From the NCBI RefSeq assembly GCF_013122565.1, contig NZ_CP053258.1: DNA of 64,000 bases. One strand, written 5' to 3'. Positions 4,000 to 54,789 of this stretch are shown here, one piece after another; positions within the stretch are counted from its first letter, which is position 1, and each line of letters starts with the position of its first letter. Made by a program: the position numbers and the translations under genes. Under the pieces are notes generated by a model, which was not told where the DNA came from, searched no databases, and saw only the letters and a program-made list of their open reading frames with translations. Source of the stretch: Escherichia coli. GTDB taxonomy: Bacteria; Pseudomonadota; Gammaproteobacteria; Enterobacterales; Enterobacteriaceae.

Positions 4000-4329
4000 T
4001 TACGCCAGGTTAGCGTCGAGGAACTCTTTCAACTGACCTTTAGACAGTGCACCCACTTTGGTTGCCGCCACTTCACCGTTTTTGAACAGCAGCAGAGTCG
4101 GGATACCACGGATGCCATATTTCGGCGCAGTGCCAGGGTTTTGATCGATGTTCAGTTTTGCAACGGTCAGTTTGCCCTGATATTCGTCAGCGATTTCATC
4201 CAGAATCGGGGCGATCATTTTGCACGGACCGCACCACTCTGCCCAGAAATCGACGAGGATCGCCCCGTCCGCTTTGAGTACATCCGTGTCAAAACTGTCG
4301 TCAGTCAGGTGAATAATTTTATCGCTCAT
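4000..4329 (-). CDS. trxA: Thioredoxin 1
   Basis: ORF 4000..4434 contains [37 protein letters not shown] (WCGPC active site); start set at MSDK for 109 aa. Confidence 0.95.
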
Positions 4330-4459
4330 ATATAACTCCACAGGAATAAGCCTGGCGTGTTGGTTTCGTTGTTGGTGTAACATTAACCAACTAAAGGTTG
4401 ACTTTATTTCACCGGATACGCTTTCGTAAAGCAATAGTAAGCTGATATTCTACCACACT

Positions 4460-23172: not shown

Positions 23173-23292
23173 ATGCCTGGCAGTTCCCTACTCTCGCATG
23201 GGGAGACCCCACACTACCATCGGCGCTACGGCGTTTCACTTCTGAGTTCGGCATGGGGTCAGGTGGGACCACCGCGCTACGGCTGCCAGGCA
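23173..23292 (-). rRNA. rrfC: 5S ribosomal RNA
   Basis: 120 nt; reverse complement begins TGCCTGGCAGCCGTAGCGCGGTGGTCCCACCTGACCCCATGCCGAACTCAG and ends ...GGGAACTGCCAGGCAT. Confidence 0.95.
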
Positions 23293-23384
23293 AATTCTGT
23301 TTTATCAGACCGCTTCTGCGTTCTGATTTAATCTGGATCAGGCTGAAAATCTTCTCTCATCCGCCAAAACATCTTCGGCGTTGT

Positions 23385-26288
<2,904 letters not shown>

Positions 26289-26481
26289 TCACAACCCGAA
26301 GATGTTTCTTGCGATTCATCATCGTGTTGCGAAAATTTGAGAGACTCACGAACAACTTTCGTTGTTCAGTGTTTCAATTTTCAGCTTGATCCAGATTTTT
26401 AAAGAGCAAATATCTCAAACAAGACTTAACAGTCTGTTTTGAGATATTGAGGTCGGCGACTTTCACTCACAAACCAGCAAG

Positions 26482-26557
26482 TGGCGTCCCCTAGGGGATT
26501 CGAACCCCTGTTACCGCCGTGAAAGGGCGGTGTCCTGGGCCTCTAGACGAAGGGGAC
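26482..26557 (-). tRNA. gltU: tRNA-Glu (anticodon UUC) in the 16S-23S spacer
   Basis: Reverse complement reads GTCCCCTTCGTCTAGAGGCCCAGGACACCGCCCTTTCACGGCGGTAACAGGGGTTCGAATCCCCTAGGGGACGCCA. Confidence 0.95.
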
Positions 26558-26642
26558 GTATCAGTCTGCTTCGCAAGACGCCTTGCTTTTCACTTTCTAT
26601 CAGACAATCTGTGTGAGCACTGCAAAGTACGCTTCTTTAAGG

Positions 26643-28184
<1,542 letters not shown>

Positions 28185-28664: not shown

Positions 28665-29357
28665 ATGCCTTTAAGCGCACAACAGTTAGCTGCACAGAAA
28701 AACCTTTCGTATGTTCTGGCTGAGAAGCTGGCGCAACGGATCTTAAAAGGTGAATATGAACCCGGCACCATTTTGCCTGGTGAGATTGAGCTGGGCGAGC
28801 AATTTGGAGTGAGTCGTACAGCGGTACGCGAAGCGGTCAAAACGTTAACGGCAAAAGGGATGGTTTTACCGCGACCGCGAATTGGTACCCGGGTCATGCC
28901 ACAATCAAACTGGAATTTTCTTGATCAGGAATTGCTTACCTGGTGGATGACAGAAGAGAACTTTCATCAGGTCATCGATCACTTTCTGGTTATGCGTATC
29001 TGTCTGGAGCCACAAGCTTGCCTACTGGCAGCAACGGTTGGCACCGCGGAACAGAAGGCGCATCTCAATACGTTAATGGCCGAAATGGCGGCATTAAAAG
29101 AGAACTTTCGCCGTGAACGCTGGATCGAAGTCGATATGGCCTGGCATGAGCATATCTATGAAATGAGCGCCAATCCTTTTTTGACCTCATTCGCCTCGCT
29201 ATTCCATTCGGTTTATCACACTTACTTCACGTCAATTACCAGCGACACAGTGATAAAGCTGGATCTGCACCAGGCGATTGTCGATGCGATTATCCAAAGC
29301 GATGGCGACGCGGCATTTAAAGCTTGTCAGGCGCTGCTACGCTCACCTGATAAGTGA
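28665..29357 (+). CDS. yieP: GntR/FadR-family transcriptional regulator YieP
   Basis: 230-aa ORF MPLSAQQLAAQKNLSYVLAEKLAQRILKGEYEPGTILPGEIELGEQFGVSRTAVREAVKTL (GntR helix-turn-helix). Confidence 0.9.
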   Translation: MPLSAQQLAAQKNLSYVLAEKLAQRILKGEYEPGTILPGEIELGEQFGVSRTAVREAVKTLTAKGMVLPRPRIGTRVMPQSNWNFLDQELLTWWMTEENFHQVIDHFLVMRICLEPQACLLAATVGTAEQKAHLNTLMAEMAALKENFRRERWIEVDMAWHEHIYEMSANPFLTSFASLFHSVYHTYFTSITSDTVIKLDLHQAIVDAIIQSDGDAAFKACQALLRSPDK

Positions 29358-29379: not shown

Positions 29380-30807
29380 ATGAGCGATAAAAAGAAGCGC
29401 AGTATGGCGGGTTTGCCGTGGATCGCGGCGATGGCCTTCTTCATGCAGGCACTTGATGCCACTATTCTGAATACCGCCTTACCCGCAATCGCTCATAGCC
29501 TTAATCGTTCTCCTCTCGCGATGCAATCAGCCATCATCAGTTATACGCTGACGGTGGCGATGCTTATTCCGGTAAGCGGATGGCTAGCCGATCGCTTCGG
29601 TACGCGTCGCATTTTTACCCTTGCCGTGAGTCTGTTCACGTTGGGTTCTCTGGCCTGCGCACTTTCTAATTCGCTACCACAGCTGGTTGTCTTCCGGGTT
29701 ATTCAGGGGATAGGCGGCGCAATGATGATGCCTGTTGCTCGGCTGGCCTTACTGCGTGCTTATCCTCGTAATGAACTTCTTCCGGTATTGAATTTTGTCG
29801 CTATGCCGGGTCTGGTGGGGCCAATTTTAGGCCCCGTACTTGGCGGCGTGCTGGTCACCTGGGCAACCTGGCACTGGATATTTTTAATCAATATCCCCAT
29901 AGGTATTGCGGGCCTTCTTTACGCGCGCAAACATATGCCCAATTTCACCACCGCACGACGCAGATTCGATATCATTGGCTTCTTGCTGTTTGGCCTTAGC
30001 CTTGTTCTCTTCTCAAGCGGAATAGAGCTATTCGGGGAAAAGATTGTCGCCAGCTGGATTGCCTTGACGGTGATAGTCACCAGCATCGGGTTACTGCTTC
30101 TCTATATTCTCCATGCGCGACGCACACCAAACCCATTAATTTCATTAGATTTATTTAAAACCCGCACTTTCTCGATCGGTATCGTAGGCAATATTGCAAC
30201 CCGTCTGGGGACCGGCTGTGTACCGTTCCTTATGCCATTGATGTTACAGGTAGGATTTGGTTATCAGGCGTTTATTGCTGGCTGTATGATGGCACCGACA
30301 GCGTTAGGTTCCATTATTGCAAAATCGATGGTTACCCAAGTCTTACGTCGTCTGGGCTATCGCCATACGTTAGTGGGGATCACGGTGATTATTGGGCTAA
30401 TGATCGCTCAGTTCTCTTTGCAATCACCGGCAATGGCGATATGGATGCTGATCTTGCCGTTGTTTATATTAGGGATGGCTATGTCGACGCAATTTACCGC
30501 GATGAATACCATCACACTTGCCGATCTGACCGATGACAACGCCAGCAGCGGTAACAGTGTTCTGGCGGTCACGCAGCAACTGTCTATCAGTTTAGGCGTT
30601 GCTGTAAGTGCGGCCGTCCTTCGCGTTTATGAAGGGATGGAAGGCACAACGACTGTCGAACAATTCCACTATACGTTTATAACGATGGGCATTATTACTG
30701 TTGCTTCAGCAGCAATGTTCATGCTTCTGAAAACAACCGATGGTAATAATTTGATCAAAAGACAGCGTAAATCTAAGCCGAACCGCGTTCCATCAGAATC
30801 GGAGTAA
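29380..30807 (+). CDS. hsrA: MFS-type efflux transporter HsrA (YieO)
   Basis: 475-aa ORF with about 14 hydrophobic segments ([38 protein letters not shown]...). Confidence 0.9.
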
Positions 30808-31765
30808 GTTGTAATCGTTGTTGCTGAAGGGTCGGCTGGGTTATCCGATGGATGAGTACATCAATCGCCAGCTCCCCCAGTTCATCTTTCGGTTGGTGGA
30901 TAGTGGTTAATGGTGGCGTCATAAATCTTGCCAGTTCGATATCGTCATAGCCAATCACCGCGATATCCTGCGGAACCTGTAACTCTGCCTGATACAGCGC
31001 CTGGTAAACGCCAACAGCCATAGCGTCATTTCCGGTAAAGACAGCCTGAGGACGCAGCGGATGTGATAACAGTTGGCGCATGGCGTCAAACCCGCCGTTA
31101 AATTCAAAATCACCAGTGACTTCATAGCCATCAGGAATGTTGAGACCCGCACGTTTCATCGCCGCCCGATAACCTTCCAACCGCAGGCGCGCCGGAGTTT
31201 TATCCAGCGGACCGGTAATACAGGCGATACGGGTATGACCTTTATCGATCAGATATTGCGTTGCTAAGTCTCCGCCCAGCAACGAGTTATCCTGAATAAG
31301 ATCGCTGTCGCCATCGAACGGAGCCCAGTCCATCATCACGGTAGGCACTGTCGGATAACGTTGCATGATTTCACGCGAAGGTTGATGCGTTTCGGTGCAC
31401 AGTAACAGCAAGCCATCAACGCGTTTTTGCATCAGCGTTTCCAGATTGCGATTCATCCGCTGTTCATCGCCTTCGGTATTGCAAAGGACGAGACTATAAC
31501 CGCGTTCGAAGCAGCTGCGTTCAACGCCACGCACCAGTTCTGAATAGAAAGGATTGGTACTGGCAGTGATCAACATGCCAATGGTATGTGTTTGATTGAG
31601 CTTGAGGCTACGCGCCAGAGCTGATGGCGCGTAATTGAGTTCTTTAATCGCCGCTTCAACTTTGGCGGTAATCGCTTCACTGACGAAGCGATCTTTATTG
31701 ATAACGTGAGAAACTGTTGAGGTAGAAACGCCCGCCTGGCGGGCAACATCTTTCATTGTAGCCAA
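30773..31765 (-). CDS. rbsR: Ribose operon repressor RbsR (LacI family)
   Basis: 330-aa [68 protein letters not shown] (LacI-type helix-turn-helix); last gene of the rbs cluster. Confidence 0.95.
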
Positions 31766-32698: not shown

Positions 32699-32823
32699 AT
32701 TCGGGATGTCCATAAAATGCGCCACCGTGTTAGGGTGGCGCGTGCCCTGCTTTTCTTTATATTACACGTTCATCTGTCGATGACGTATTTATGTCACCAT
32801 CAGGTCATACAACCTGATTAAAA

Positions 32824-33714
32824 CTACTGCTTAACAACCAGTTTCAGATCAACCGGATACTTAGCCTGAACTTTCTCGCCTTTCAGCACTTTATCTGCGG
32901 TTTCAACGCCTTTCGCGCCAATCTGATCGGGTAGCTGAGCGATAGTCGCTGCTAGTTTGCCATCATTCACCGCTTTTTCGCCATCCGGTGTACCGTCAAA
33001 TCCGACAACCATCACATCCGATTTACCGGCAGTTTGCAGTGCGCGCAGCGCGCCCAGCGCCATTTCATCATTCTGCGCGAATACAGCCTGAACATCCGGA
33101 TGAGCGGTCAACAGGTTCTGCATTACGTTCAAACCTTTGGTGCGATCAAAATCTGCTGGCTGGCTGGCAAGAACATTAAACTTGTGAGCAGCAACGGCCT
33201 GCTGGAAGCCTTCGCCACGTTCACGGGCTGCGGATGTACCAGCAATGCCTTGCAGCTCGATAACTTTGGCACCTTCACCCGCTTTCTTCGCGATGTAATC
33301 ACCGGCGATTTTGCCACCCAGTACGTTATCAGAAGCAATGTGGCTCACCACTTCACCTTTCGTTGCCTGGCGGTCAAGAGTGATAACCGGGATGTTCGCC
33401 TGGTTAGCCATCTTCACAGCATTACCTACTGCGTCGGAGTCGGTCGGGTTAATCAGCAGAATTTTGGTGCCGCGAACGGTTAAGTCCTGCACGTTCGCCA
33501 GCTCTTTCGCCGGGTTGTTCTGGGAGTCCAGCACCACCAGGTTATAGCCAAGTTTATCCGCCTCTTTCTGCGCGCCATCTTTCAGCGATACAAAGAACGG
33601 GTTGTTAAGCGTGGAGACCACCAGCGCGATGGTGTCTTTTGCCATCGCATTCGCACTGACGGTGGCGCTTAGCGCAACAGCGGAAACCAGGGTAGCCAGT
33701 TTTTTCATGTTCAT
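32824..33714 (-). CDS. rbsB: Ribose ABC transporter periplasmic binding protein
   Basis: ORF 32824..33720; start set at [41 protein letters not shown] (signal peptide, 296 aa). Confidence 0.95.
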
Positions 33715-43997: not shown

Positions 43998-44270
43998 TCT
44001 ACTGTGGATAACTCTGTCAGGAAGCTTGGATCAACCGGTAGTTATCCAAAGAACAACCGTTGTTCAGTTTTTGAGTTGTGTATAACCCCTCATTCTGATC
44101 CCAGCTTATACGGTCCAGGATCACCGATCATTCACAGCTAATGATCCTTTCCAGGTTGTTGATCTTAAAAGCCGGATCCTTGTTATCCACAGGGCAGTGC
44201 GATCCTAATAAGAGATCACAATAGAACAGATCTCTAAATAAATAGATCTTCTTTTTAATACCCAGGATCC
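43998..44270. other. Chromosomal replication origin oriC
   Basis: DnaA boxes tgtggataa (44004-44012) and ttatccaca (44183-44191) plus further 9-mers; three AT-rich 13-mers ctaataagagatc / aatagaacagatc / aaataaatagatc (about 44205-44248); at least 11 GATC sites in about 280 bp; sits between mioC and mnmG (gidA). Confidence 0.95.
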
Positions 44271-54491: not shown

Positions 54492-54789
54492 ACGCGTTGA
54501 CCCGTCCTGAAGAGCGTTCACATAGATCCTGCTGATATAAAACCCCCTGTTTTCCCGTTTATTCATTGATCGAAATAAGAGCAAAAACATCCACCTGACG
54601 CTTAAATGAAGGTACTGTCTTAATTTTTGGCAGACAAATGGCGTGACTATGGTTGAAAATGGCGCTTTCGTCAGCGGGGATAATCCGTTATTGAACAATT
54701 TATCCTCTGTCCATTTCACGATGAAAAAAATGTAGTTTTTTCAAGGTGAAGCGGTTTAAATTCGTTCTCAAATTACAGTCAGGACGCGT

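Follow-up and report, generated by a model that had tools for sequence, protein, structure and literature searches.

A convergent 35-nt coding overlap between hsrA and rbsR in Escherichia coli: geometry, apparent origin and constraint

Do the convergent genes hsrA and rbsR of Escherichia coli share the DNA that encodes their last residues, and, if they do, how did this overlap arise and how are the two facing transcripts brought to an end? The initial annotation of the window, i.e., the whole 64,000-nt stretch of the E. coli chromosome analyzed here, placed the 3' ends of the two genes in a tail-to-tail overlap of 35 bp. The gene order in the window is yieP and hsrA, then, facing them, rbsR, rbsK, and rbsB, which is reversed relative to K-12. 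The features needed for the description of the junction are listed below (positions are those of the window).

28665..29357, + strand: yieP, a GntR/FadR-family regulator by the ORF listing and annotation, upstream gene of the yieP-hsrA operon (PMC11340327)
29380..30807, + strand: hsrA, a DHA2-type MFS transporter of 475 aa, second gene of the yieP-hsrA operon, named 'mdtD' by PGAP
30773..31765, - strand: rbsR, the LacI-family ribose operon repressor of 330 aa (NCBIfam equivalog NF007743)
30773..30776, no strand: CTAA tetramer, in which CTA gives the rbsR stop TAG, and hsrA does not read the TAA at 30774-30776 in frame
30775..30804, + strand: 10-codon extension of hsrA (residues 466-475), missing from the 465-aa HsrA of the 4-nt-overlap species in the protein alignment
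30806..30808, - strand: rbsR Leu320 codon CTT, whose last two bases form, with the A of Thr321 (ACT), the hsrA TAA on the opposite strand

According to the ORF listing, hsrA stops with TAA at 30805-30807 and rbsR with TAG, which reads CTA on the + strand at 30773-30775. The stretch common to both genes, 30773..30807, comprises 35 nt and is coding on both strands. On each strand it takes in the stop codon, the last 10 complete sense codons, and 2 nt of the codon before them; HsrA residues 466-475 plus the stop are read opposite RbsR residues 321-330 plus the stop. Codon positions 1/2/3 of hsrA face positions 1/3/2 of rbsR, i.e., phase (123:132) in the notation of Lillo and Krakauer. The two genes are a convergent overlapping protein-coding pair, with ORFs on opposite strands that share their 3' ends. 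The coordinates and gene names of the initial annotation were correct, as was its statement that no intergenic room is left at the junction. The RefSeq annotation of K-12 MG1655 agrees (rbsR 3938227-3939219 on the + strand, hsrA 3939185-3940612 on the - strand; b3753/b3754) with an identical 35-nt overlap, and the overlap is also present in a PGAP-annotated genome. Two causes of a spurious overlap had been considered, namely an earlier stop in one of the genes and a sequencing error. Neither frame contained an earlier in-frame stop in the ORF listing, and a 111-nt query recovered the same junction from 5413 of the 5426 complete genomes of E. coli (≥99% identity in 4443 of the 5413 matches), where both CDSs were annotated under the match. 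A chance test hardly applies to the length of the overlap, as it is unremarkable for a shifted frame to continue for 10 codons before it meets a stop.

The HsrA protein of the window was 99.8% identical to that of K-12, and its orthologues in 80 species were 75-99% identical across Enterobacterales. It scored 267 bits against TIGR00711 (DHA2 family; cut-off 230.2) and 457.8 bits against the MdtD subfamily model NF007799 (cut-off 426). The latter match covered residues 13-465 only, and the last ten residues lay outside the family profile. The family models thus assigned HsrA to the DHA2 (EmrB/QacA-type) MFS efflux transporters. The PGAP label 'mdtD' is a subfamily-level name and does not denote the mdtABCD gene. 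RbsR matched the equivalog NF007743 with 694.8 bits (cut-off 531) over residues 1-330 of 330, and this full-length match above the cut-off classified it as a LacI/GalR-family repressor. The stop of rbsR is considered genuine because the full-length 330-aa RbsR has been crystallized (PDB 9ny7/9ny8) and its C-terminal stretch aligns with VHPRLIERRS of PurR. On this evidence, both hsrA and rbsR are taken to be genuine genes up to their annotated stops.

The conservation of the overlap was then followed across the order. One genome per species was scanned with an HsrA orthologue alignment, which yielded 80 loci from Enterobacteriaceae, Erwiniaceae, and Serratia, and rbsR was convergent with and directly downstream of hsrA in all of them. 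Each reading frame was walked to its first stop in these 80 species loci and in two E. coli reference records (82 in all), and the junctions fell into the following classes.

4-nt overlap (TTAA, CTAA, TTAG, CTAG), 45 loci: Serratia, Pantoea/Erwinia, Cedecea, Buttiauxella, Klebsiella, Pluralibacter, Pseudocitrobacter, and others
35-nt overlap, 25 loci including the two E. coli records: Escherichia, Salmonella, Citrobacter, the Enterobacter cloacae complex, and Leclercia
53-nt overlap, 2 loci: Lelliottia-like, with the rbsR TAG lost and RbsR 6 residues longer
9-nt overlap, 3 loci: Kosakonia-like (TCAGGCTGA)
2-nt spacer, 4 loci: Phytobacter, Kluyvera, and Atlantibacter
rbsR interrupted, 3 loci: Kluyvera ascorbata, Serratia plymuthica, and Ca. 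Pantoea haifensis

The distance between the two genes ranged from -53 to +2 nt, and a spacer of more than 2 nt was found in none of 77 species of Enterobacteriaceae, Erwiniaceae, and Yersiniaceae. Conservation of the overlap, which the initial annotation had suggested as a check, was borne out in that its length was exactly 35 nt in 23 further species as well as in the E. coli records; it was 4 nt in 45. In E. fergusonii, the transporter gene (hsrA) is reportedly missing from its place beside yieP (PMC11340327). The 4-nt state, with HsrA ending in ...ERHK(A/P/R/H) and the stop, is ancestral by outgroup comparison, because the outgroups Serratia, Pantoea/Erwinia, Cedecea, Buttiauxella, and Klebsiella carry it.

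The junction DNA of 44 species was aligned and anchored on the rbsR stop. Long- and short-overlap species differed by one base just before this stop. Pseudescherichia has CAC AAG CCT TAA GCG (ERHKP and the stop) and Leclercia has CAC AAA CCT AAA CCG (ERHKPKPTRVPSEQE and the stop), one T apart; the corresponding sequences are AAA GCT TAA GCC in Enterobacter sp. ENT03 and AAG GCT AAA CCG in the E. cloacae complex. We propose that hsrA and rbsR abutted in the ancestor with interlocked stops (...xCT TAA on the hsrA strand, and the rbsR TAA from TTA), which would correspond to the 4-nt overlap, and that one T was then lost (CTTAA to CTAA). The deletion would have left rbsR with a stop, turning TAA (TTA) into TAG (CTA), and would have shifted the frame of hsrA beyond its old stop. 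The extended frame would have gained 10 codons antisense to the codons of the last beta-strand of RbsR, and would have ended at the TAA formed by rbsR Leu320 (CTT) and Thr321 (ACT). Such a single-T deletion is consistent with the stop usage of rbsR, which is TAG in all 23 non-reference species of the 35-nt class (TAA in 36 and TAG in 9 of the 4-nt species), with the CTAA relic of E. coli and with the change in phase from (123:213), typical of 4-nt overlaps (Lillo and Krakauer, PMC2174442), to (123:132). The deletion as a historical event is what we infer from these comparisons, and the 35-nt state seems to be derived from it.

A gene tree was built from the gap-free columns of HsrA and RbsR with the tails removed (100 bootstraps). 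This local tree recovered Escherichia/Salmonella/Citrobacter in 92/100 and Enterobacter/Leclercia/Lelliottia in 100/100 replicates, and the union of these two long-overlap groups in only 9/100. Because of this low value, one origin and two origins are both compatible with the tree: the T deletion may have occurred twice, the junction may have been transferred, or the deep branching may simply be poorly resolved.

How transcription ends at a junction of this kind was considered from both strands. A consensus scan detected no intrinsic-terminator-like site within ~180 nt of the hsrA or the rbsR stop. The 180-nt sequences that follow the two stops folded no more stably than shuffled sequences (z = -1.1 and -0.7), the consensus folds of ten species contained no terminator at the junction, and a search of Rfam gave no match there. 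A bidirectional intrinsic terminator, i.e., a G+C-rich hairpin with an A-tract and a U-tract, was rejected as scan, folds, consensus folds, and Rfam all came back empty. A hairpin at 30831-30876 on the + strand, antisense to rbsR, was also rejected as a conserved structure: in 78 sequences, 80.8% of its cells were paired vs. 79.7% in shuffles, and its covariation was 0.135 vs. 0.125 in shuffles. Its conservation is attributable to the coding of rbsR. The initial annotation had argued that there is no room for an intrinsic terminator for either gene. The absence of such a terminator near the stops held, but the argument from space does not hold in general, since a terminator can sit inside the partner CDS, as it does for ~20% of the genes in convergent overlaps of E. 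coli (Lillo and Krakauer, PMC2174442). Read-through into the partner gene, which had been put forward as a consequence, is required by the geometry because the CDSs overlap without a spacer or an intrinsic terminator, and it is supported by the ExcludonFinder (PMC12288877) and Adams et al. (PMC7815308) data. Each mRNA would extend beyond its own gene as RNA antisense to the partner.

The end of this read-through on the hsrA strand may be sought in published data. Adams et al. (2021) reported a bicyclomycin-sensitive region of Rho termination on this strand, 262 nt past the hsrA stop (PMC7815308). K-12 coordinates (x) were mapped to the window as 30773 + (3939219 - x). Two further features of the window are listed below.

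about 31069, + strand (K-12 3938923, - strand): peak of the Rho region 'antisense rbsR', Rho score 2.78, p = 7.6e-6 (PMC7815308)
30912..31041, + strand: C>G stretch on the hsrA-sense transcript, +105..+234 after the hsrA stop, with C/G of 1.35-1.69 in 78-nt windows

The reads at this Rho region, low in number and of coarse resolution (800-nt windows), fell from 102 upstream to 32 downstream in untreated cells and were 164 and 143 with bicyclomycin (PMC7815308). The stretch 30912..31041 lies just upstream of the published region and is a candidate Rho loading region by its composition. On the rbs strand, Rho termination was reported early inside rbsR (K-12 3938387, score 3.77), together with an ORF-internal 3' end at K-12 3938325 (PMC7815308). 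Past the rbsR stop on its own strand, Adams et al. reported neither a Term-seq 3' end nor a Rho region (PMC7815308), the SMRT-Cappable-seq supplements had no entries for rbsR or hsrA, and no paper on an rbsR terminator was found in a literature search. Beyond the rbsR stop, the C/G ratio came to 1.35-1.50 over +105..+208; on both strands the values are raw ratios and the C excess is modest. Rho would most likely end each transcript once the ribosomes leave at the stop codon, a role that is likely on the hsrA strand and inferred for the rbsR strand. The junction resembles other cases of Rho-dependent termination of untranslated or antisense RNA in that it has no hairpin or U-tract and that hsrA-strand read-through in rbsR is sensitive to bicyclomycin (PMC7815308). 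It differs from them in the coarse position of its 3' end and in that no Rho region is reported past the rbsR stop.

The shared DNA was further analyzed for selection. In 24 loci with the 35-nt overlap, variation within the overlap peaked at rbsR codon position 3 (= hsrA position 2) with 0.22-0.24, and was about 0.06-0.07 and 0.10-0.11 at hsrA codon positions 1 and 3, respectively. The peak at rbsR position 3 indicates that the RbsR frame would dominate the evolution of the common DNA, to which the tail and stop of HsrA would add measurable constraint. In the 35-nt group, rbsR third positions had 2.40 parsimony changes per site over the last 10 non-Met codons, compared with 5.36 over 190 upstream codons, and 20000 random site sets yielded no value as low as 2.40. 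For the same rbsR codons in Enterobacteriaceae with the 4-nt overlap (n = 26), the values were 6.73 vs. 7.44 upstream (P = 0.23). The overlap sites that hardly varied were those for P-S and for the final E in the HsrA tail, as well as those of the hsrA stop. The Leu320 codon, in which a change from CTT to CTG or CTA would abolish the hsrA stop, was CTT in 17 and CTC in 1 of the 18 loci with a 330-aa RbsR that were tallied among 23 with the 35-nt overlap. CTG predominated at this position in the 4-nt species (17/33). CTT and CTC are the only Leu codons that preserve the stop on the hsrA strand, and without the stop derived from Leu320, HsrA would extend by 15-76 further codons. In the window, CTG at Leu320 would lengthen HsrA by 16 residues, since the former TAA would be read as sense and 15 codons would follow up to a TGA at 30853-30855. 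In the simplest reading, translation of hsrA continues across the overlap, and purifying selection appears to act on the tail of HsrA or at least on how long it is. Selection at the RNA level could mimic protein-level selection on the HsrA tail, and the constraint test comprised only 10-11 codons.

Taken together, the overlap is probably best explained as a genuine and fixed tail-to-tail arrangement that arose as a by-product of the evolution of the gene ends, not as a dedicated device, with read-through that is ended by Rho. HsrA and RbsR would both be made to their annotated ends.

Other explanations were weighed against this by-product origin. It could be argued that the 10-residue tail of HsrA is without selective value and that the overlap persists as any change would damage rbsR. 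The tail is indeed missing from most genera and from the family profile, its sequence differs between species, and the peak of variation at hsrA codon position 2 is a signature of the rbsR frame. However, it is only under the hsrA overlap that synonymous change in rbsR falls to less than half of its upstream rate, the P-S and final E residues of the tail hardly vary, and Leu320 is kept as CTY, which preserves the hsrA stop, although CTG predominates in the 4-nt species. A purely neutral tail was accordingly regarded as very unlikely. An artefact of annotation or sequencing, in which one gene ends earlier and no true coding overlap exists, is scarcely credible. No support was found for it beyond the poor characterization of HsrA function and expression, and it is opposed by the open frames of both genes, by the recurrence of the junction in the 5413 E. 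coli genomes and of the 35-nt length in 23 other species, by the crystallized full-length RbsR, and by the frame-specific constraint in the overlap.

The remaining alternative is that the overlap or abutment was kept as a functional excludon, in which antisense transcription couples the two units and makes their expression mutually exclusive. Transcription of the ribose operon through rbsR would then silence yieP-hsrA and vice versa, by polymerase collision or because RNase III cuts the duplex. The published 'excludome' of E. coli contains the pair (PMC12288877), the spacer never exceeds 2 nt in the 77 species from three families, and synonymous variation is lowered in the overlap. However, an ExcludonFinder call is automatic for any overlapping CDS pair and is silent on regulation, and deletion bias alone explains the loss of an unneeded spacer. 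The synonymous drop was confined to loci with the 35-nt CDS overlap and did not occur in the 4-nt species, whose transcripts must overlap too; this points to the reading frame of hsrA and not to an RNA duplex. Moreover, expression in LB is weak by the read counts of Adams et al., and the early Rho termination inside rbsR limits the flux of polymerase toward hsrA (PMC7815308). No paper reporting mutual repression or RNase III processing of rbsR/hsrA was found in the literature search. That the ribose regulator and the pump gene interfere with each other, the other consequence named in the initial annotation, is a hypothesis, and we consider the functional excludon unlikely. Still, the speculation may be allowed that the spacer-free junction was selected for mutually exclusive expression of the ribose regulon and YieP-HsrA, and that the HsrA tail, possibly acquired twice, could have a function of its own; we hold this to be rather improbable.

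The overlap of hsrA and rbsR is already annotated and already known, and it is one of dozens of such overlaps in E. coli. Convergent CDS overlaps were counted as 58 (Lillo and Krakauer, 2007, PMC2174442) and 75 (Huvet and Stumpf, 2014, PMC4161906) in E. coli K-12. Their lengths peak at 4 nt, and phase (123:132) is the commonest among those longer than 4 nt (49%; Lillo and Krakauer, PMC2174442). The pair is like the convergent pairs formed by stop-codon shift (PMC2174442, PMC4161906) in that opposite strands share their 3' ends and also in origin, where a stop is lost or bypassed and the frame extends to the next in-frame stop. There is no essential difference from this class; the hsrA stop would have been bypassed by a 1-nt deletion instead of a point mutation, and hsrA/rbsR would have started from an existing 4-nt overlap. 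The 4-nt interlocked convergent stops (CTAA, TTAA, CTAG, TTAG) are the state of hsrA/rbsR in 45 of the 80 species, whereas E. coli has the derived 35-nt state, in which only a CTAA relic is left with its TAA out of frame.

The junction has also been recorded at the level of transcripts. ExcludonFinder (NAR 2025, PMC12288877) lists rbsR-hsrA among 165 convergent excludons, with an overlap of transcripts in at least 50% of 58 RNA-seq sets of MG1655; the geometry alone demands that the transcripts share 35 nt or more. Excludons such as mscL-arfA (PMC10070815) and those of the ExcludonFinder list (PMC12288877) are likewise convergent neighbors with overlapping transcripts. However, reciprocal regulation has been demonstrated for the classic examples, and rbsR-hsrA conforms to the excludon definition by the transcript overlap in the literature only. 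In addition, most excludons overlap in their UTRs, whereas the rbsR-hsrA overlap lies in the coding regions.

The overlap is of little import for new biology, as it is found in the reference annotation, belongs to a common class and is included in a published overlap list. For annotation, both stops were confirmed to be right. The value added here lies in the evolutionary reconstruction and in the evidence of constraint in both frames. The arrangement offers a separation-of-function allele: re-insertion of the T would remove the HsrA tail and would change rbsR only from TAG to TAA. It may serve as a textbook case in which a one-base deletion in interlocked stops would give rise to a longer coding overlap, and in which the new frame of hsrA would then slow synonymous change in its partner rbsR.

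Across thousands of E. coli genomes, the label that PGAP gives to the hsrA gene (29380-30807 in the window) is "mdtD: multidrug transporter subunit MdtD", and the same label was found in the E. coli RefSeq records H1-H37. HsrA scored 457.8 bits against the MdtD subfamily model NF007799, and it received this label because it passes the model's cut-off of 426. The same gene is named hsrA in the K-12 annotation; the mdtD symbol is a name at the subfamily level and is misleading. Some E. coli and Shigella HsrA records (P0006-P0013, P0026, and P0027) were shorter, with 421-465 aa, so hsrA may have been truncated or may be decaying in certain lineages. In E. fergusonii, the MFS transporter gene (hsrA) is reported to be missing beside yieP (PMC11340327).

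The junction between hsrA and rbsR also varied among species. In the Lelliottia-like loci L021 and L027, the overlap was 53 nt because the rbsR stop codon TAG was changed to TCG, and RbsR was extended by six residues (SAGGDL). In the Kosakonia-like loci L026, L032, and L042, the stop codons of hsrA and rbsR were both TGA and lay inside the 9-nt near-palindrome TCAGGCTGA. An apparent interruption or truncation of rbsR beside an intact hsrA was observed in Kluyvera ascorbata (L051), Serratia plymuthica (L063), and Ca. Pantoea haifensis (L072); these could be pseudogenes or assembly errors.

Just upstream of yieP, there was a complete rRNA operon, and most of the draft-genome loci in the one-genome-per-species hsrA scan stop ~1 kb ahead of hsrA because this operon sits there:

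22963-28184, minus strand, complete rRNA operon
26643-28184, minus strand, 16S
26485-26557, minus strand, tRNA between 16S and 23S
23385-26288, minus strand, 23S
23175-23290, minus strand, 5S
22963-23120, minus strand, two distal tRNAs at the operon end

Three other RNA elements were matched in Rfam, and the position of the sRNA RbsZ was mapped from its K-12 annotation (3937045-3937278):

54549-54706, minus strand, sRNA STnc410
19453-19742, minus strand, Rev39 5′ UTR element
4300-4399, minus strand, TrxA 5′ UTR thermometer
~32714-32947, minus strand, expected position of RbsZ (rbsB 3′ region)

The strongest Term-seq signal of the rbs operon is the RbsZ 3′ end (PMC7815308). At the gathering threshold, Rfam gave no match at the expected RbsZ position.

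The DnaA box TTATCCACA occurred three times in the whole window, compared with a chance expectation of 0.3. Two perfect matches were inverted relative to each other at a spacing of 180 bp:

44003-44011, minus strand, DnaA box
44183-44191, plus strand, DnaA box

By K-12 coordinates, oriC falls at this site, and the window therefore seems to hold the chromosomal replication origin.

Within rbsR, a perfect palindromic hairpin was located at codons ~25-33:

31671-31692, both strands, hairpin ATCGCTTCACTGACGAAGCGAT

On the plus strand, which is antisense to rbsR, the hairpin was followed by CTTTATTGAT and had a terminator-like score in the consensus terminator scan. Reading along the rbsR strand, it lay directly before an ORF-internal Term-seq 3′ end at K-12 3938325 (~31667 in the window), which adjoins the Rho region at K-12 3938387 (PMC7815308). 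The hairpin could act as an attenuator of rbsR relative to rbsK; alternatively, it could halt antisense RNA that comes from hsrA.
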